A stretch of 64,000 nucleotides of DNA, taken from contig JAOAIP010000019.1 in assembly GCA_026414605.1 (NCBI GenBank), positions 5,242-69,241 on the forward strand, in the 5' to 3' direction. The notes beneath the pieces are model-generated. The model was not told where the DNA came from, did no database searches, and was given only the letters and a program-made list of their open reading frames with translations. The position numbers and the translations under genes were made by a program. Shown here one piece after another: positions 10,343 to 38,831 of the stretch; within the stretch, counting starts at the first letter, position 1, and every line of letters starts with the position of its first letter. Source of the DNA: Bacteroidia bacterium. GTDB lineage: Bacteria > Bacteroidota > Bacteroidia > B-17B0 > Aurantibacillaceae.

Positions 10343-10876
10343 TTACTTTAATTGATTAATATCTTTGAACCAAGTGGAGTAAAATAAATAATTTTTTGCA
10401 ATACGTTCTACTTCGCCACTTAATAATTCTGCTGAAATGTCTTTTACTTTTTTTGCGGGGATGCCTGCAAATACGCAATTGTCAGGGACTTCTGTGCCTT
10501 CTAAAACAACAGCCCCTGCTGCGATAATTACATTTTTCCCAATCTTGCAATTGTCCATCACGATTGCCCCCATTCCTATCAACACATTGTCTGAAATGGT
10601 GCATCCGTGAACAATGGCGTTATGTCCAATAGATACATTATTGCCAATATGTGTTTCGGTTTTTTGATACGTGCAATGAATAGTGGCATTATCTTGGATA
10701 TTGACTCTATTTCCTATACGAATTTTATTAACATCACCTCTTACTACAGCATTGAACCAAATACTACACTCATCGCCCATTACTACATCGCCCACAATGG
10801 TAGCATTAGGGGCTACAAAGCAATTTTTACCAAACACAGGAAAAATGCCATTTACAGGATAAATAAAACCACTCAT
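10343..10876 (-). CDS. gamma carbonic anhydrase family / hexapeptide-repeat protein (YrdA/PaaY-like)
   Basis: 177 aa with left-handed beta-helix hexapeptide repeats (IGNNVSIGHNAIVHGCTISDNVLIGMGAIV). The N-terminal VAPNATIVGDVVMGDECSIWFNAVVRGDVN is characteristic. Confidence 0.85.
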   Translation of the reverse strand: MSGFIYPVNGIFPVFGKNCFVAPNATIVGDVVMGDECSIWFNAVVRGDVNKIRIGNRVNIQDNATIHCTYQKTETHIGNNVSIGHNAIVHGCTISDNVLIGMGAIVMDNCKIGKNVIIAAGAVVLEGTEVPDNCVFAGIPAKKVKDISAELLSGEVERIAKNYLFYSTWFKDINQLK

Positions 10877-10950
10877 ATTTTTTGCCTTAAAGGTATCTTA
10901 AATATAATTAAAAATCAACAGTGCTATTTCAACAAAAACAACATTCTTAG

Positions 10951-10958
10951 TATCTTTG
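10951..10958 (+). promoter_or_regulatory. -7 promoter box TATCTTTG
   Basis: TAnnTTTG match 20 nt upstream of ATG 10978. Confidence 0.45.
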
Positions 10959-10977
10959 TGGCATAAATTATTAAAAA

Positions 10978-11709
10978 ATGAAAATTAAACGCTTTACTGT
11001 AGAGGATGTTTATTTTAATATGATGAAGGAAGAATTTAAGGAAAACAAAGTAAAGTCAGAGGAGTCAATGTTTATTTATTTTGCTTCGTATTACATTAAT
11101 CGTTTTTTGCATACAGATTTAAAGATAAAATCATATATTGGATTGAAGGTAAAAGGCCAAACAAAAGATGTTTTTTGTATAACAATCCCTTTTTCTGCTA
11201 TCAATGAAAGCAAGGAAAACAAAAGGTTTTTCAAAAAATATTTTGAAGAATGTATTAAAGATAATGAAAGATACGTTGGTTTATTAAAATTAAATAAGGA
11301 ACAAAAGATTGGATTTTTATTCAAACACGATGAAGAACTTTTAAGTGCTTACAAAACAGGACAATATTCAAAAATATCTGAAAATAAAAAAAAGCGAATG
11401 AAACGGCTCAAAGTCATTGATTATGATATGAAAGTAAAAGCATTTTATGTATATCTTTCTAATCATCAAGAACCCAATCCTGATGAGTGGAAAGAATATC
11501 CTCTTGGAAAAAGCGATAAAATACTTTTTGAGTTATACAAAATGATTTATCCTGAATATTTTTACAATGTGTTGGCTGAACAATTCAATATCAACATTGA
11601 ATATTTAAAGAAAAATCAAGTTCAAATACTTCCTAAACCTAATTTTGAGAATGAGTATCTTGAAATATCTGAAAACGACGAATTGTATTGGTTTGATAAA
11701 AAACAATAA
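10978..11709 (+). CDS. hypothetical protein (no family recognised)
   Basis: 243-aa ORF with its own -7 box and a TAATG stop/start overlap with the next gene. Lys/Glu-rich, with no signal peptide. Confidence 0.55.
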   Translation: MKIKRFTVEDVYFNMMKEEFKENKVKSEESMFIYFASYYINRFLHTDLKIKSYIGLKVKGQTKDVFCITIPFSAINESKENKRFFKKYFEECIKDNERYVGLLKLNKEQKIGFLFKHDEELLSAYKTGQYSKISENKKKRMKRLKVIDYDMKVKAFYVYLSNHQEPNPDEWKEYPLGKSDKILFELYKMIYPEYFYNVLAEQFNINIEYLKKNQVQILPKPNFENEYLEISENDELYWFDKKQ

Positions 11710-16171: not shown

Positions 16172-16216
16172 ATAAACAAAATTAATTACATTTGAATTCC
16201 TAAGTTTATAAAAATG

Positions 16217-16570
16217 TGGACCCGCTCCGAATCGAACGGAGGTCCAAGTAAGCAATGAGTAAGTTTTCTACAGGTTTAGTGTTCACTTTCGCATTCGGTA
16301 CAAAGCAAGCAGAACACCGCTTATACTTTGTACCTATCCGCTGGTAGTCATCTTTCGTAGCGGAGTCCGAAAGATGCTCTGTCTCTTTCCGACGCCTTAC
16401 ACCTTTCGCCAGACAGAAGGGCTAAAGGGAAGACGGGCTGCAACTATTAGGCAGCCATTGCGAAGTTAGATTCGCCATTTAAGTTTTGGAGACGAGATTT
16501 AAGAGCATTGTCCCCATTGCTCTACCTGCTTACTTACCCATTGTTCTTACTGTCGATACCTGTCGGGCCC
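16217..16570 (-). ncRNA. ssrA: tmRNA (transfer-messenger RNA)
   Basis: On the reverse strand the 5' GGGCCCG pairs with the 3' CGGGUCC, including the G3-U alanine identity pair. T-arm GGACCUCCGUUCGAUUCGGAGC. Tag reading frame GGC GAA TCT AAC TTC GCA ATG GCT GCC TAA TAG (16476-16444) encodes GESNFAMAA, close to the usual Bacteroidota GExNYALAA tags. CCA is not encoded. Confidence 0.95.
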
Positions 16571-31132: not shown

Positions 31133-32694
31133 AAAAAATCATTTTTATTGTATCAGCATTGTTTTTCACTATCTCTGCAAATGCTCAAGAGTTAGACAAT
31201 AAATTAATGCCTAAATTTTTAAAAGCCGAAGATCTTTTTGATGCAGGGAATTATTTATCCGCCATTCCTTTGTACAAAGAGGTTTTAGATAAAGCACCGC
31301 ACAACAAATTTGTAATGGCTAAATTAGCAGTATGTTACATTAAGACAAGAACCAATAGAGATCAATCTGTTAAACTCCTCGAAAAACTTGTTGAATCCAA
31401 AGATATAGATCCCAAAATTTGGTATTATCTTGGAAAAGCATACCATCTTAATAATAAATTAGACGACGCCATTGCTGCTTATGAAAATTACAAAACATTT
31501 AAATTAAAAAAGAAAGAAGTAGAAGATGTGAATAGACAAATAGAAATCTGTAAAAACGCAAAGCAACTAATGCAATACCCTGTAAATGTTATTTTTACAA
31601 ATATCGGAAAAGAAATTAATACAGAGTTTCCCGAATACTATCCATTTGTAGATGAAAACGAAACGACATTAGTGTTTACCTCACGTAGAAAAACCAATAT
31701 TGGTGGAGGAAGATCAGAAGCAGATGGTTACAGACCAAGTGATGTATGGATAAGCACTGTTAAAAATAATGTTTGGGATAAACCAATGAGTGCAGGAAAA
31801 GAAATCAACACTAAATTTGATGAAATGTGCGTGTTTCTTAATCCAGAAGGAAATGTAATGTTGGTTTATGTTGATAGAGGAGGAGAAAAATTCGGTGATC
31901 TTTATTTAAGTATGAAAGACAAAAAATCTCAATTTGGAAAACTAAAACCATTGCCAGAAATCATTAACGACCCTGATAAAATTGAATTGTCAGGATGTTT
32001 TAATAGAGATAGTTCTATTTTCTTTTTTGTAAGAAAAGATAAATTAGAAACAACATCAGATATTTTTATGGTGAAAAAATTACCCAATGGACAGTGGGGA
32101 CCACCTCAAAAATTACCAGAACAAATTAATACACCATACAATGAAGATTTCCCATACCTTGCCCCAGATGGTGTTACTTTTTATTTTGCATCAGAAGGAC
32201 ATAATAGCATGGGGGGCTACGATATATTTAAATCTATTTTTGATCCTGAAACAGGAAAATTTACTCCTGCTGAAAATCTCGGCTATCCAATTAACTCAAC
32301 CGATGATGATATGGGAATATGTGTTACAAAAAATAAAAAGATTGCTTATGTCAGTGCTTATCGTCCTACAGGATATGGAGACCTTGACATTTACCGAATC
32401 AAATTTATGGATGAAGAACAAGCCACAAAGATATTTAAAGGAAAAATTTTTATGAAAGATACCACACAAAAGATGAATCAACAAATTACTATCATTGCTA
32501 CCAATAAAAAAACAAGCGATGAGTATACATTTACGTCAAAAAACAATGGAGAATTTATTTTAGCATTAGAAGAAGGTGAATATACAATAAGTGTGGATAT
32601 AGACGGTTTTTTACCATTTAAGAAAGATATGAAAGTATCAGATATAGGTACAATTTCAGAAGAAGAATTGACGATTGTTCTTCAACCGAAATGA
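31129..32694 (+). CDS. TPR plus PD40 beta-propeller protein, paralog 3
   Basis: ATGA overlap with paralog 2. PNGQWGPPQKLPEQINTPYNEDFPYLAPDGVTFYFASEGHNSMGGYDIFKS. Confidence 0.6.
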   Translation: MKKIIFIVSALFFTISANAQELDNKLMPKFLKAEDLFDAGNYLSAIPLYKEVLDKAPHNKFVMAKLAVCYIKTRTNRDQSVKLLEKLVESKDIDPKIWYYLGKAYHLNNKLDDAIAAYENYKTFKLKKKEVEDVNRQIEICKNAKQLMQYPVNVIFTNIGKEINTEFPEYYPFVDENETTLVFTSRRKTNIGGGRSEADGYRPSDVWISTVKNNVWDKPMSAGKEINTKFDEMCVFLNPEGNVMLVYVDRGGEKFGDLYLSMKDKKSQFGKLKPLPEIINDPDKIELSGCFNRDSSIFFFVRKDKLETTSDIFMVKKLPNGQWGPPQKLPEQINTPYNEDFPYLAPDGVTFYFASEGHNSMGGYDIFKSIFDPETGKFTPAENLGYPINSTDDDMGICVTKNKKIAYVSAYRPTGYGDLDIYRIKFMDEEQATKIFKGKIFMKDTTQKMNQQITIIATNKKTSDEYTFTSKNNGEFILALEEGEYTISVDIDGFLPFKKDMKVSDIGTISEEELTIVLQPK

Positions 32695-33589: not shown

Positions 33590-35007
33590 AAAACGAATTA
33601 AAAAATATAAAAGAATATTTTAATCAATTGGCAATAAAGAGAAAAAATAAAACCTTAAATAGATATTATTGGAATGAAATAACTCGTTACATAGAATATT
33701 TTACACACGAATACGATTCTGTATTAGAAATTGGTTGTGGAAGCGGCGATCTTATTGCTAATATCAAAGGGAAACATAAAACAGGAATTGACTTTTCAGA
33801 AGAACAAATTAAATGGGCAAAGGAAAAATACGGACATTATTCCAACATAGAGTTTTTAGTAATGGATGCTAATAATTTGAACTTAAATCAAAAATACGAT
33901 CTTATCATTATTTCAAATGTAATAGGTTTTTTAGAAGACATTCAAAAGGTTTTTGAACAATTACACAAAGTAGCACATCCAAGAACCAAAATCATTGTTC
34001 AATACTATAACTCTTTTTGGGAACCATTTATAAAATTAGCAGAATTTATTGGGATTAAGAAAAAAACTCCTATTCAAAACTGGCTCACCAGCGACGATGT
34101 TAATAATTTACTTTACATTTCTGGATTTGAAGTGTATCGCAATACAAGACAAATGCTATTTCCTATATACATTCCTTTAATTTCAGAACTCTTAAATCGC
34201 TATATTGCTAAATTACCTATCATTCGTTATTTTAATCTTAATCATTATTCTTTTGCTCGCCCATTGCCTTGTAATACTTGCGAAGAATATTCTGTTTCTG
34301 TTGTTATTCCTGCTCGTAATGAAAGTGGAAATATTGAAAACGCTATTTTGAGAATGCCCCGCTTAGGTAAACATACAGAAATTATTTTTGTAGAAGGAAA
34401 CAGCACAGATGATACTTGGGAAAAAATTATTGATGTAAGCAATAAATATAAACATCAATGGGATATTAAATACTTCAAACAACCCGGAAAAGGCAAAGCA
34501 GATGCGGTAAGAGAAGGATTCAAACACGCTACAGGAGATATTTTGATGATTTTAGATGCTGACCTTACGGTACCACCCGAAGATTTACCAAAATTCTATA
34601 ATGCCATTGCTTCCAATAAAGGCGATTTTATCAATGGAACACGATTGGTTTATCCAATGGAAAAACAAGCAATGCGGTTTTTAAATTATTTGGGAAATCA
34701 GTTTTTTAGTTGGCTGTTTTCATTTTTATTAGAGCAAAAATTTAATGATACATTATGTGGTACCAAAGTGTTATTCAAAAAGGACTATGAGAAATTAATT
34801 AAAAATCGAGAATACTTTGGTGATTTTGATCCTTTTGGTGATTTTGATTTACTTTTTGGAGCACATAAATTAAATTTAAAAATCGTGGAAGTGCCCATAA
34901 AATATAGAGAAAGAGTTTATGGTACTACCAATATATCTCGTTTCAAACATGGATGGATACTTCTCAAAATGTGTGTTTTTGCCAGTAGAAAGTGTAAATT
35001 TATTTGA
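33586..35007 (+). CDS. fusion of a class I SAM methyltransferase (N-terminal) and a family 2 glycosyltransferase (C-terminal)
   Basis: N-terminal VLEIGCGSGDL. C-terminal VSVVIPARNESGNIE, FVEGNSTDDT and ILDADLT (DxD) are GT2 motifs. Confidence 0.75.
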   Translation: MKNELKNIKEYFNQLAIKRKNKTLNRYYWNEITRYIEYFTHEYDSVLEIGCGSGDLIANIKGKHKTGIDFSEEQIKWAKEKYGHYSNIEFLVMDANNLNLNQKYDLIIISNVIGFLEDIQKVFEQLHKVAHPRTKIIVQYYNSFWEPFIKLAEFIGIKKKTPIQNWLTSDDVNNLLYISGFEVYRNTRQMLFPIYIPLISELLNRYIAKLPIIRYFNLNHYSFARPLPCNTCEEYSVSVVIPARNESGNIENAILRMPRLGKHTEIIFVEGNSTDDTWEKIIDVSNKYKHQWDIKYFKQPGKGKADAVREGFKHATGDILMILDADLTVPPEDLPKFYNAIASNKGDFINGTRLVYPMEKQAMRFLNYLGNQFFSWLFSFLLEQKFNDTLCGTKVLFKKDYEKLIKNREYFGDFDPFGDFDLLFGAHKLNLKIVEVPIKYRERVYGTTNISRFKHGWILLKMCVFASRKCKFI

Positions 35008-35009
35008 TA

Positions 35010-35879
35010 ATGTATTACCTTGTTTATAGTATAATATTTGTATTATCTCTATTACCATTGCGAGTTTTATATTTAATTTCAGATGCTTTGGCACTTATTC
35101 TGTATTATATCTTAAGATATAGAAGAAGCGTAGTGCGTAATAATTTGATAAATGCTTTCCCAGAAAAATCAATAGATGAAATTACTCGGATAGAAAAAAA
35201 TTTTTATCGCTTTTTTACACAATGGATAGTTGAAACATTAAAATTAGTTTCTATTTCTCCTTCCGAATTAAAGAAAAGATGTATTTATACAGATCAATTT
35301 AAATCTATATTTGCTAAATATTATCAAGAAAATAAAAGTATAATGGCCTTAATGGGACATATTGGAAATTGGGAATGGGCAGGATCCTCTTTTCCTCTTT
35401 ACTTTAATCAAAAACTCATTGTTCTTTATCATCCATTGTCTAATAAAATTTTTGATCGTTTGATGATTCGTATCCGATCTCGTTTTGGAACAGAATTGTT
35501 GCCGATGCAAAGGGCTACCAGATATATTTTATCACATATTAAAGAAAAGCAAGTATATGCTTTCATTGCAGATCAATGTCCCTCTTTGCACAATGCTTTT
35601 TGGATGGAATTTTTGAATCAAGACACTGCGGTTTATTTTGGTCCAGAAAAAATTATGCACAAAACCCACCTTGTTCCTGTAATAGTTATTGTTTATCCAC
35701 ATCCAAATCAACGAGGACATTATATTATTGATGCAGAAGAAATAAAAAATACTGAAACAGAACTTGATACCTACCCCATAATGCATCAATTTATGAAAAA
35801 ATTAGAATCTGCTATTCAAAAGTATCCTGAATATTGGTTGTGGTCTCATAAGAGATGGAAGTTAAAACGACCCTCTTGA
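35010..35879 (+). CDS. LpxL/HtrB-family lipid A (Kdo2-lipid IVA) late acyltransferase-like protein
   Basis: N-terminal TM helix and MGHIGNWEW (HxxxxE-type acyltransferase motif). C-terminal PEYWLWSHKRWK is typical of the family. TTG 35004 is an alternative start. Confidence 0.7.
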   Translation: MYYLVYSIIFVLSLLPLRVLYLISDALALILYYILRYRRSVVRNNLINAFPEKSIDEITRIEKNFYRFFTQWIVETLKLVSISPSELKKRCIYTDQFKSIFAKYYQENKSIMALMGHIGNWEWAGSSFPLYFNQKLIVLYHPLSNKIFDRLMIRIRSRFGTELLPMQRATRYILSHIKEKQVYAFIADQCPSLHNAFWMEFLNQDTAVYFGPEKIMHKTHLVPVIVIVYPHPNQRGHYIIDAEEIKNTETELDTYPIMHQFMKKLESAIQKYPEYWLWSHKRWKLKRPS

Positions 35880-35890
35880 AAAGGACGATT

Positions 35891-36286
35891 TAGGGTTTGG
35901 TGAAAAAGCCAAAATTTACTTTCATAAAAATTAAATTATGGTTTCATAAAAAATCCGCCGAAGGCGGATAAATGTGAATAGCCATCGGTGAAACCGATGG
36001 TAAAAAGCAACATATTTATTTACAACTCTGAAAGGGTTGAATAAAAAACAAAAAATATCTTTTGTAGAACATTCAACCCCTTCGGGGTTGCAAAATTTAT
36101 TACCTTTTTATACCCCCAATTTCATTGGGGGCTATTCACATTTAATCCCTTCGGGATAATTTTTTTAAAATTAAAACAAGTGCAAGGATTTTTAGAAAAT
36201 TTGATAAAACGATTGCACAAAAAAAACAAAAAACGCATGGTAACTTAATAAATATCAATTAATTGAAACTTTTTCATCAAACCCTA
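35891..36286. repeat. 396-bp quasi-palindromic array of six triloop hairpins bounded by 18-bp terminal inverted repeats
   Basis: Terminal inverted repeat TAGGGTTTGGTGAAAAAG (35891-35908) / CTTTTTCATCAAACCCTA (36269-36286), 17 of 18 matching. Hairpins lie at 35953-35969, 35982-36000, 36023-36039, 36074-36090, 36113-36131 and 36144-36156. See findings. Confidence 0.8.
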
Positions 36287-36412
36287 TTTAAATGCAAATG
36301 ATTTTTATTTCTTAAACTCAGGATATCAGCCGATCATCTTTTTTATTTACCATTCATAAAATTTAACCAAATTCTATTAAAAAACAGCATTCTAAATGTA
36401 AATTAAAATCTG

Positions 36413-36420
36413 TATTTTTG
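36413..36420 (+). promoter_or_regulatory. -7 promoter box TATTTTTG
   Basis: TAnnTTTG match 18 nt upstream of ATG 36438. Confidence 0.45.
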
Positions 36421-36437
36421 TAACAAAATTTAGTATT

Positions 36438-38831
36438 ATGAGAAAAATCTATTTAATTGTCGCTGCGGGCATTAGTGTAGGACTAATGTTTGCACAAAGT
36501 GGAAGAAAAGCAACTTTTACAAAAGCGACATCGGCAACTCCTGCTACAATGGTTCAAGAACAACCCATTAAAAGAACGTGCGGAACAGTGGCGCCTCCTG
36601 TTGAATGGGAAGAGCAATTTCAAAAACTAATTGAACAGTATGTAAAAGACCATCCAGAAATTATGAATGGAAGAGTATATACGAACTATACTATTCCAAT
36701 TGTATTCCATGTTGTTCACGGAGGTCAAGCAATAGGAACTTATCCTAATTTAGCACAAGGACAAATTAACTCTCAAGTGCAAGTATTGAATGCTGATTAT
36801 TCGGGAACGGGTTTAAATGTTGGTAATTATCCATCTAATGCTTTTGTCAATTATGCCGCTTCATTGCCTGCAGCCAATAAAGATGCCAATGGTAGAGTAA
36901 AAATAGCCAATACAGGAATTCAATTCTGCTTAGCAACCAAAGACCCCAATGGCAATACATTAGCCGAACCAGGTATTGATAGAATCAATTATGTAAGTAA
37001 AGGTTGGAGCAATCCTGCTTCTTTCACTTCTGTATCTGCTTTTCAAAGTTTTATAGATGGTACGGTAAAACCAAATACAATTTGGGACCCCACCCGATAC
37101 TTTAATGTTTGGGTTACAGATGTAAGTACCAGTGTTGGGTTACTTGGTTATGCTACTTTTCCAGCAGGTACGGGATTAACAGGGCTTTCAGGTTTTGGTA
37201 CTGCTACTACCGATGGCGTTTGGATTTGGGCAAAAGCATGCGGTTCAAAAAACATCTATCCATCCGGTACTTATGCAGCCCCTTATGATAAAGGTAGAAC
37301 ACTTACACACGAGGCAGGTCACTGGCTGGGCTTAAGACATATTTGGGGCGATGGAACTTGTGCAACAGATTATTGTGCAGATACTCCTCCTGCTCAGACA
37401 TCTAATAATGGTTGCCCAACTTATCCTTATCATGTAGGAACTTGTTCAGGAAATTCTCCTGATGGAGAAATGTTTATGAACTTTATGGATTATACAGATG
37501 ATGCATGTATGTATATGTTTACTGTTGATCAAACTACGAGAATGCAAACAGCTATGGCAAATGGTACTTATAGAAGTCAATTAACGGCTTCTAGTGCTAC
37601 ACTGTGTGGATCTTCTTCACCCGCAGCTAATGCTTGTTTTACAATGCCTTCTACAGGATGTATCAATACTGCCATTAACTTAACGAACTGTTCCACCGGT
37701 AGTCCTACACCAACTTATACATGGACTGCGAATCCTAATACAGGAGTTACTTTTAATCCTAACCAAAATGCTACTAATCCATCGGTTACTTTTGCTAATA
37801 CCGGTTCTTATACCATTACACTTACAGCAAGTAATGGAACAGTGAGCACATCTTCGCATGTGATTAGTATTTCTTCTTGTGTAACACAAACAGTATGTAA
37901 TGACACTATCACTAACATTAGAAATACAGATACTTTAGTCGCTTACACATTACCTACTAGTACTGCTTGTACAACTGGAGGATTTATTTCTGGTAATAAC
38001 TGCTATGGCGATCTTGAAAAAGCAGAGTTTTTTGCACCATCAACGTATACACAAGTACAACCCGCTCAGTTCATCACAGGAGTAATTGTTCTTTTCTATA
38101 AAAATGGAAATGTGGGAACAGGAGGTTCTTCAACAGGTAGAGTAGATATGACAATATACAATGGAGATGGCACAAGCGGTCCAGGAACTGCTGTTGCAAC
38201 CGTTACAGCCAACTTGGGTATGATAACAGCAGGTACACCCACAACCAAGGTAACTTATTGCGGTGACCCCAATTTGGGTTATTCTCAGCCAATTATTCTT
38301 CCATACAAGTATACCTTTACTACTCCTGTTGGTCCACTATCAAGCTCAACACCAAATGGTTTCTTTGCGTCTGTGGTCTTACCTACAACAAGCGGAGATA
38401 CCGCAGTGATATTTAATAATACCATTGGTTCAAATCCAACAAATACTATGTGGGAAAAATGGAACACAAATGCTTGGTATGCTTACAATGATGCTACTAA
38501 TAGTTGGGGCATAGATTTAAATGGAGCGATTTTACCAATTCTCACTTGTACTACTGGTAAAGATGAAATAAGCACCTTTGCTAATAACATTATGATTGTG
38601 CCCAACCCATCTAATGGTATATTCAATATCGTTACAACATTTAATGAAAAACAAAACATTAAGTTTGAAGTAATGAATACACTCGGTCAGGTATTAAATA
38701 GTGGTGAGTTCCAAAATGTAATGAGTAATCATCTTACTATTAACTTAAGCAATTACCAAAATGGAATTTATTTCTTAAGAATAACCAATGGATCTGAAAC
38801 ATTAGTAAAACGTATTGTTATCAACAAATAA
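36438..38831 (+). CDS. secreted M43 (cytophagalysin/pappalysin-like) zinc metalloprotease with a T9SS C-terminal sorting domain
   Basis: Signal peptide. HEAGHWLGLRHIWGD zinc motif. PKD-like segment (TYTWTANPNTGVTF...GSYTITLTASNG). The C-terminal IVPNPSNGIFNI...GIYFLRITNGSETLVKRIVINK is a Por secretion tail. Confidence 0.85.
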   Translation: MRKIYLIVAAGISVGLMFAQSGRKATFTKATSATPATMVQEQPIKRTCGTVAPPVEWEEQFQKLIEQYVKDHPEIMNGRVYTNYTIPIVFHVVHGGQAIGTYPNLAQGQINSQVQVLNADYSGTGLNVGNYPSNAFVNYAASLPAANKDANGRVKIANTGIQFCLATKDPNGNTLAEPGIDRINYVSKGWSNPASFTSVSAFQSFIDGTVKPNTIWDPTRYFNVWVTDVSTSVGLLGYATFPAGTGLTGLSGFGTATTDGVWIWAKACGSKNIYPSGTYAAPYDKGRTLTHEAGHWLGLRHIWGDGTCATDYCADTPPAQTSNNGCPTYPYHVGTCSGNSPDGEMFMNFMDYTDDACMYMFTVDQTTRMQTAMANGTYRSQLTASSATLCGSSSPAANACFTMPSTGCINTAINLTNCSTGSPTPTYTWTANPNTGVTFNPNQNATNPSVTFANTGSYTITLTASNGTVSTSSHVISISSCVTQTVCNDTITNIRNTDTLVAYTLPTSTACTTGGFISGNNCYGDLEKAEFFAPSTYTQVQPAQFITGVIVLFYKNGNVGTGGSSTGRVDMTIYNGDGTSGPGTAVATVTANLGMITAGTPTTKVTYCGDPNLGYSQPIILPYKYTFTTPVGPLSSSTPNGFFASVVLPTTSGDTAVIFNNTIGSNPTNTMWEKWNTNAWYAYNDATNSWGIDLNGAILPILTCTTGKDEISTFANNIMIVPNPSNGIFNIVTTFNEKQNIKFEVMNTLGQVLNSGEFQNVMSNHLTINLSNYQNGIYFLRITNGSETLVKRIVINK

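Follow-up and report, generated by a model that had tools for sequence, protein, structure and literature searches.

The six hairpins in the gap between an LpxL-like acyltransferase gene and an M43 protease gene probably represent a REPIN/BIME-like doublet of IS200-type transposon ends in a shell of terminal inverted repeats (TIRs) and target site duplications (TSDs), that is, MITE-type mobile DNA with hairpins serving as DNA structures bound by a Y1 transposase. The element occupies positions 35892 to 36285 of the window, the term used here for the whole analyzed stretch of 64 kb. As the six hairpins lie inside a mobile element with IS200-type end modules, they are to be read as selfish repeat DNA instead of an RNA gene. 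Of the two readings offered in an earlier note on this DNA, the REPIN/MITE-like one is borne out by the insertion and its 4-bp TSD, by further copies, by covariation over at least 120 loci, and by the bracketing of Y1 genes with the same modules.

Hairpins and Repeats

Direct reading, an exact hairpin scan, and a repeat scan recover all six hairpins described in the earlier note. H1 (35953 to 35969, ATCCGCC-GAA-GGCGGAT) and H2 (35982 to 36000, CCATCGGT-GAA-ACCGATGG) are seen both by direct reading and in the exact triloop scan. They are followed by H3 (36023 to 36039, CAACTC-TGAAA-GGGTTG), which contains one T.G pair, and by H4 (36074 to 36090), H5 (36113 to 36131), and H6 (ATCCC-TTC-GGGAT), all three of which are found by the exact triloop scan. 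H6 itself is as described, with its position shifted one base to the right, from 36144 to 36156 to 36145 to 36157; after this correction, the spacer between H5 and H6 comprises 13 nt, compared to 12 nt between H1 and H2. The spacers between H2 and H3 and between H4 and H5 were correctly given as 22 nt each. The window contains exactly two copies of the inverted 12-mer AAATGTGAATAG, one on the plus strand at 35970 and one on the minus strand at 36132, and the terminal inverted repeat at 35891 to 35908 and 36269 to 36286 is complementary at 17 of 18 positions in the repeat scan.

Apart from these structures, the 64 kb (31% G+C) contain no G+C-rich hairpins with GAA or TTC triloops; the other 11 GAA/TTC-triloop hairpins of the window have stems with 0 to 40% G+C. 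RNA folding of the two element halves compared to shuffles results in z-scores of -3.3 and -4.1, and the whole element folded as single-stranded DNA reaches -8.8. The hairpin array is real and nonrandom. The earlier note misleads in tying full closure of H3 to plus-strand RNA, as most of the sister copies listed have a perfect CAACCC/GGGTTG stem at this place. In view of this perfect stem, the T at 36027, which forms the G.U pair in H3, is best read as an apparent substitution in the window copy. Three other classes of repeat were considered and dropped: a CRISPR-like array, as the "spacers" measure 17 to 26 nt and are similar to one another, and tRNA-like units and integron attC sites, both on reading of the sequence.

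Insertion Site and Architecture of the Element

The element is a recent insertion into the gap between two genes, one for a Lip_A_acyltrans protein (LpxL-like) and the other for an M43 peptidase that carries a T9SS sorting domain. These flanking genes assign the organism to Bacteroidota. A homologue of the acyltransferase with 99% identity is contained on three short Logan contigs, two of which, L001 and L002, extend beyond the gene. These contigs align to window positions 33875 to 35887 (99.3%) and 36286 to 36577 (98%) with a single clean gap of 398 bp, the sum of a 394-bp element and a 4-bp duplication of ATTT. The empty site reads GACG-ATTT-AAATGC and the window GACG-ATTT-AGGGTTTGG...CCAAACCCT-ATTT-AAATGC, with ATTT present once in the former and twice in the latter. 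In more distant relatives (63 to 64% identity), the gene is followed by only 77 to 98 bp.

Comparison with the empty site places the left and right TSD copies, both ATTT, at 35888 to 35891 and 36286 to 36289. The ends of the 394-bp nonautonomous element (MITE) between them are defined by the empty site and by the ends of sister copies. The left TIR, AGGGTTTGGTGAAAAAG (35892 to 35908, plus strand), was found in the repeat scan and is kept at sister-copy ends; its right counterpart (36269 to 36285, minus strand) has AGGGTTTGATGAAAAAG as its reverse complement and shows one mismatch. The A+T-rich right arm of the shell (36158 to 36268) exceeds the left arm (35909 to 35952) by about 65 nt and is likewise kept in sister copies. 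Between the arms lie two modules of identical order and opposite orientation. Module B (35953 to 36048, minus strand) consists of hairpin 1 (H3, 36039 to 36023), a 22-nt linker, hairpin 2 (H2, 36000 to 35982), CTATTCACATTT (35981 to 35970), and hairpin 3 (H1, 35969 to 35953). In module A (36065 to 36157, plus strand), H4, a 22-nt linker, H5, CTATTCACATTT (36132 to 36143), and H6 take the same places. R1, a covariance model built for this module, matches both modules of the window, the only ones it finds there, as well as Y1 loci elsewhere. Module B is matched at 35970 to 36048 on the minus strand (75.6 bits; E = 1e-14) and module A at 36065 to 36143 on the plus strand (78.8 bits; E = 2e-15), the left one reversed and the right one forward across a 16-nt gap. 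A further weak match at 31524 to 31593 on the minus strand (E = 0.04) lies inside a 521-amino-acid open reading frame without hairpins and is attributed to chance.

The element contains no open reading frame of more than 40 amino acids, the longest having 40, and encodes nothing. It is present in one copy in the 64-kb window. In metagenome contigs obtained from the inner-module scan, blastn detects 13 full-length copies with 82 to 90% identity in addition to partial ones. The matches end at window positions 35890/1 and 36286 to 36293, beyond which the flanks are unrelated, and the TIRs coincide with the limits of both the 398-bp gap and the sister copies. Identical 4-bp direct repeats (AATT, ATTT, and AAAT; consensus AWWT) flank 9 to 10 of the 13 copies, and the remaining ones match at three of four positions. 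In the four cases with nonpalindromic flanks, the repeats are direct and not inverted, which identifies them as true duplications instead of extensions of the inverted repeats.

With its TIRs, TSD, size, lack of a transposase, and multiple copies, the element is a MITE by every testable criterion. It resembles bacterial MITEs such as the Correia elements in being a noncoding, multicopy unit (394 bp) with TIRs and a TSD of fixed length, in its presence or absence between strains, in its intergenic site, and in its strongly folding quasi-palindrome. In contrast to these elements, the search yielded no parent insertion sequence sharing its ends, and the interior is made up of the inverted end modules of another (Y1/HUH) transposon family and not just of the remnant of a deleted insertion sequence. 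In the fetched loci, a search for an autonomous partner sharing these terminal repeats finds nothing but repeat pairs at a distance of about 385 bp. A search of the genome collection with the 17-nt terminal repeat gives 118 single chance matches among the matches listed, none of which extends beyond 17 to 22 nt.

Module Family and Covariation

The earlier note had suggested searching for the 12-mer flanked by hairpins in other genomes. The module pattern ATTCAACCC-N42-62-CTATTCACATTT matches at least 120 metagenome contigs, and removal of near-duplicates leaves 58 nonredundant modules among the matches listed, 56 of which show the same architecture: (TTCAC)ATT followed by hairpin 1 (CAACCCC/GGGGTTG), a variable linker, hairpin 2, CTATTCACATTT, and hairpin 3. 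Hairpin 2 has the form CC-NNNNN, a loop of TTTCA or TTGCA, and NNNNN-GG. The modules are 75 to 95 nt long and contain three hairpins and the tag CTATTCACATT but no GTAG; more than 240 homologous modules exist elsewhere.

Hairpins 2 and 3 are outside the constraint of the search pattern. For hairpin 2 (H2 and H5 in the window), 94.6% of cells are paired in the 58 nonredundant modules among the matches listed; in the same set, 99 cells show double changes, compared to 32 ± 4 in shuffles, and the covariation score is 0.63, compared to at most 0.13 with a slid partner. Hairpin 3 is found in 48 of 57 modules among the matches listed, with 24 different stems, compared to about 2 modules in shuffles. 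The compensatory stem changes noticed between the two halves of the window element are consequently real and extend to 58 modules, and the observation that structure is kept while stem sequence is not applies to the whole module family.

Neighboring modules, counted over all loci, are arranged as 68 divergent (median gap of 28 nt), 35 tandem, and 5 convergent pairs, which makes the divergent doublet the dominant arrangement. The stems particular to each half of the window element are kept in all sister copies. This marks the halves as distinct variants of the module with a long history, comparable to the Y and Z REP types in a BIME.

Linkage to IS200-Type Y1 Transposases

Clustering of the open reading frames within 3 kb of the modules reveals a protein of about 148 amino acids as the only recurrent neighbor, with no other conserved neighbors. 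The protein matches Pfam Y1_Tnp (E = 1e-15 to 1e-25) and contains HIH and Y-x3-Q motifs. It scores 62 to 72 bits with the NCBIfam IS200 model (cutoff, 55), compared to 22 to 31 bits with the REP_Tyr_transpos (RAYT) model (cutoff, 80). The best relatives in the PDB are IS608 and ISDra2 TnpA, and the Escherichia coli RAYT is not matched. The gene occurs in 10 of 120 module loci among the matches listed. Thousands of homologues with 64 to 89% identity are found in "Ca. Parabeggiatoa," Thiomargarita, Ignavibacteriae, Bacteroidia, Ferruginibacter, and Gracilimonas. Many of them carry the JGI label "REP element-mobilizing transposase RayT."

Six loci fetched by protein homology alone and searched with R1 provide an independent test of this linkage. 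The module adjoins the Y1 gene in five of the six (L247 Bacteroidia, L248 Ignavibacteriae, L249 Gracilimonas, L250, and L251 "Ca. Parabeggiatoa"). Outward-pointing modules lie on both sides of the gene in L247, L249, and L251, and in L251 five additional modules follow in an alternating, BIME-like array. The same arrangement of Y1 gene and modules is seen in the metagenome loci L235, L236, L188, L157, and L146, and doublets flank L156 and L209. Together with its ends, the gene measures about 650 to 700 bp. The doublet of the window corresponds to this gene-bracketing arrangement minus the gene, and its central 16-nt spacer (36049 to 36064) marks the place of the Y1 gene in the full-length relatives L247, L249, L235, L236, and L251. 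The three-hairpin module is the end module of a widespread and apparently undescribed IS200-type transposon family.

The check for a RAYT or IS200/IS605-type transposase proposed in the earlier note thus leads to IS200-type Y1 genes in related loci; in the 64-kb window itself, tblastn with Y1 proteins finds no Y1 gene. No transposase of either type is encoded in the window, which, like the presence of only one copy of the element there, counts against the preferred explanation. Furthermore, no outer inverted repeats beyond the modules are present around the four Y1-gene units searched for them.

Relationship to REP/REPIN and IS200/IS605 Systems

REP/REPIN/BIME-RAYT systems (REPtrons), TIRYT/TIRtrons (Di Nocera et al. 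2013, PMC3733652), and the TnpAY1 classes (Quentin et al. 2018, PMC6006769) share with the present family G+C-rich hairpins with a conserved unpaired tag. Also shared are inverted doublets, alternating arrays, many orphan copies, and a small Y1 gene bracketed by inverted repeats, the last of these here in related loci only. In contrast to REP/REPIN-RAYT, the module lacks a GT[AG]G (or CGTC) tag and extends over 75 to 95 nt with three hairpins, compared to the single 20- to 40-nt palindrome of a REP. Its enzyme is of the IS200 type (Y-x3-Q; NCBIfam IS200) and does not belong to RAYT class 2, and the transposition of the window copy duplicated its target. [quoted passage not shown] (2017, PMC5581495).

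These differences bear on the possibility of a strict REPIN, whose REP doublet would owe its multiplication solely to a domesticated RAYT present in single copy. The TIRs would then be no more than the outermost parts of the palindrome, with incidental 4-bp repeats. Inverted doublets with short gaps are indeed the commonest arrangement, the Y1 gene is flanked by inverted repeats and alternating BIME-like arrays, many homologues are named RayT by JGI, and a third doublet family with 38-bp end repeats shows no visible TSD. Nevertheless, such an origin is improbable given the IS200 and RAYT scores on opposite sides of their cutoffs, the Y-x3-Q motif, IS608 and ISDra2 TnpA instead of the E. coli RAYT as the best solved relatives, and the three-hairpin units without a GT[AG]G tag. 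The 4-bp flanks, moreover, match pairwise and differ between copies, and the single ATTT of the empty site indicates a true duplication.

The resemblance to IS200/IS605 and their gene-less derivatives (PATEs) includes the Y1_Tnp/IS200-type TnpA, the IS200-like length of about 650 to 700 bp for the gene with its ends, and ends with subterminal hairpins, which are kept by the gene-less derivatives. Classical IS200/IS605 elements have their two end hairpins on one strand and show neither inverted repeats nor a TSD, whereas the ends formed by the module are inverted copies and the window element possesses TIRs and a 4-bp TSD. The element resembles a MITE in its exterior and REP/REPIN/BIME or TIRtron repeats in its interior, and it is neither a strict REPIN nor a classical IS200/IS605 derivative.

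DNA or RNA Structure

The earlier note had also considered a pair of small structured RNAs. Stated in full, the element would comprise two divergent paralogous small-RNA genes of about 95 nt, each with a 5' hairpin, a second hairpin, the seed CUAUUCACAUUU, and an intrinsic terminator, transcribed from overlapping central promoters. This reading is quite unlikely. H1 on the minus strand and H6 on the plus strand, each with a T-run, are terminator-like, point outward, and are the only such sites between 35600 and 36600. The folding of the halves as RNA (z = -3.3 and -4.1), the covarying stem of hairpin 2, and the strong conservation of the 12-nt linker, which is partly imposed by the search pattern, also suit RNA genes, and IS200 ends are known to yield regulatory RNAs. 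On the other hand, a T-run follows hairpin 3 in only 12 of 48 cases among the matches listed, and neither strand of the element contains a TAnnTTTG motif (the Bacteroidota -7 box); a sigma-70 scan likewise finds no promoter in it. The sole -7 box of the gap is located at 36413, 25 nt before the start codon of the protease gene and downstream of the insertion. Units of the family often abut head to tail (...CTATTCAC|ATTCAACCCC...), so that promoters would find no space between them. Strains with 99% identity differ in the presence of the unit, which moreover is found bracketing transposase genes.

A search of the whole window with Rfam 15 at the gathering threshold yields a tmRNA elsewhere as the only true match. 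Nothing relevant is found in the region even at E ≤ 10 or, at the gathering threshold, in 14 related loci. Rfam miRNA and MicF matches were rejected as generic look-alikes of long hairpins or terminators.

RNA helices tolerate G.U pairs and not A.C pairs. On the module strand, the mismatches of hairpin 2 comprise 11 G.U and 14 A.C pairs, a sample of only 25 cells, and their symmetry points to a constraint at the DNA level, since an A.C pair on one strand is a G.U pair on the other. Taken with the Rfam, promoter, and T-run results, the evidence favors a DNA structure over an RNA structure, with the G.U/A.C part coming from a small sample. Transcripts that end at the T-runs of the third hairpins in the window copy are conceivable.

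A chance local inverted duplication, the outcome the earlier note named as refuting its proposal, or a host-evolved bidirectional terminator or insulator of nonmobile origin would agree with the single copy in the 64-kb window and with outward hairpin and T-run sites able to end read-through, but either is extremely improbable in view of the insertion polymorphism with an empty site and target duplication, about a dozen copies at unrelated sites, and more than 240 homologous modules elsewhere.

Proposed Mechanism

According to the preferred explanation, a MITE with a core of IS200-type ends, insertion into the gap between the LpxL-like and M43 protease genes duplicated the 4-bp target ATTT. 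The shell may have been moved in trans by a putative DDE-type transposase, as suggested by the outer 17-bp inverted repeats and the duplication expected of a staggered cut. The core is an inverted doublet of a module of about 95 nt, in which a variable linker separates hairpin 1 from hairpin 2 (loop TTTCA) and the single-stranded CTATTCACATT(T) separates hairpin 2 from hairpin 3. The same module forms, in related genomes, the two outward ends of a small IS200-type (Y1/HUH) gene and is also found there in gene-less doublets and in tandem or alternating arrays.

The hairpins would fold in single-stranded DNA and serve the Y1 transposase as binding sites, in the manner of IS608 and REP/RAYT. Single-stranded-DNA recognition by IS608 TnpA and E. 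coli TnpA-REP is established and summarized in PMC6006769 and PMC3733652. By analogy, the hairpins and the invariant tag are most likely the signals that the Y1 enzyme recognizes and cleaves. Such binding would explain why pairing is kept as stems drift, why the unpaired linker is near-invariant, and why the two halves carry different stems.

Further structural points weigh against this explanation. Y1 transposases make no target duplications; shell and core therefore imply two different enzymes, which is unparsimonious. The Y1-gene units examined are without outer repeats beyond their modules. Finally, classical IS200/IS605 elements have same-strand ends, with which the inverted ends seen here disagree.

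Distribution and Significance

The nesting of doublets in TIR-bounded shells is a recurrent and heterogeneous phenomenon, as two other doublet families possess outer ends of their own. A family of about 355 bp with the end repeat ATGATTATCCGC... shows 8- to 10-bp duplications at about 11 of 17 sites, and a family of about 310 bp carries end repeats of 38 bp without a visible duplication. A literature search with motif strings and for MITEs in Thiomargarita found no published description of the repeat family, which appears to be undescribed, extends over several phyla, and has an unusual architecture. A bolder and more tentative reading is that of a REPIN/BIME-like population crossing phylum borders (Bacteroidota, Ignavibacteriota, Gracilimonas, and Beggiatoaceae) and associated with a Y1 transposase of the IS200 type instead of a RAYT, with doublets repeatedly carried as cargo of unrelated TIR shells. 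If true, this would constitute a second, independent origin of the REP-style link between a transposase and orphan hairpins, and the chimeras would be movable by two classes of transposase, with a 4-bp TSD in the present element and one of 8 to 10 bp in the second family.

For annotation, the stretch is to be labeled as a mobile repeat and not as a small-RNA or riboswitch candidate; in Bacteroidota and giant sulfur bacteria, R1 would pick out comparable false RNA candidates by the hundreds. For the biology of mobile DNA, the family lends itself to comparison with REPIN-RAYT systems and combines an IS200-type enzyme, long inverted ends with three hairpins, BIME-like arrays, and nesting in TIR shells. 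The near-invariant single-stranded tag may hold a cleavage or guide site, and the handling of inverted ends by a Y1 enzyme is directly testable with the 148-amino-acid protein and short oligonucleotides.

Locally, the insertion has likely placed outward hairpin and T-run sites between two genes. As the element separates a lipid A acyltransferase operon from a secreted protease gene in one strain compared to 99%-identical relatives, it represents a clean natural read-through experiment, in which the -7 box of the protease gene at 36413 is untouched by the insertion.

Putative protease promoter and insertion site

The 394-bp element lies between the LpxL-like acyltransferase gene and the M43 protease gene, and the putative promoter of the protease is left intact by the insertion because its -7 box, TATTTTTG (36413-36420, plus strand), is situated downstream of the element. 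This box matches the Bacteroidota -7 consensus TAnnTTTG exactly and is found 25 nt upstream of the protease start codon. The two contigs of near-identical strains with an empty site, L001 and L002, are each exactly 2305 bp long and come from separate sequencing runs; both stop within the protease gene without an evident cause. Elsewhere in the window, a full-length tmRNA gene is encoded at 16214-16570 on the minus strand (RF00023, 131.8 bits), the only Rfam family to reach its gathering score there.

Arrangement of elements and modules in related loci

Sister copies of the element occur head-to-tail in two related contigs, separated by 4 bp (CCCT-AGGT-AGAG; L140, 4040-4050; L134, 2548-2556). 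This arrangement suggests that an element inserted right beside the end of a copy already present.

The doublet of two inverted modules is also carried by two further element families. Elements of the first are ∼355 bp long, with end repeats (ATGATTATCCGCAAAAGCTCCTAA) unrelated to those of the window element, and are found in L127, L136, L144 (8549-8904), L158, L176, L196, L210, L213, and other loci, with direct repeats of 8 to 10 bp at about 11 of 17 sites. Elements of the other family measure ∼310 bp and are bounded by end repeats of 38 bp (AGAGAGGGCGTCAC...); its three complete copies (L152, 4208-4516; L242, 2719-3020; L245, 201-577) show no visible target duplication.

Modules are further organized in arrays. 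The 15-kb contig L207 contains 19 module matches (nhmmer) and, at 1920-2690, two back-to-back tandem arrays with ∼100 A+T-rich bases between them; the minus-strand array has seven units of ∼67 nt, and the plus-strand array has four of ∼64 nt. Downstream of the Y1 transposase gene in the gammaproteobacterium "Ca. Parabeggiatoa" sp. HSG14 (L251; GCA_030378085.1), module matches at 10442-11236 alternate regularly (+,-,+,-,+,-) at spacings of ∼140 to 160 nt, an organization similar to that of a BIME, and score as high as those in Bacteroidota.

At eight loci (L130, L131, L133, L148, L150, L175, L178, and L237), a perfect 37-nt palindrome, TCAGGCTAAAGTTTCGC-(TCC or GGA)-GCGAAACTTTAGCCTGA, directly follows the conserved unpaired tag CTATTCACATTT of the module and precedes the next AAACCCC hairpin. 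Its loop is seen in both orientations, which gives it the appearance of a distinct palindromic mini-insert within the module.
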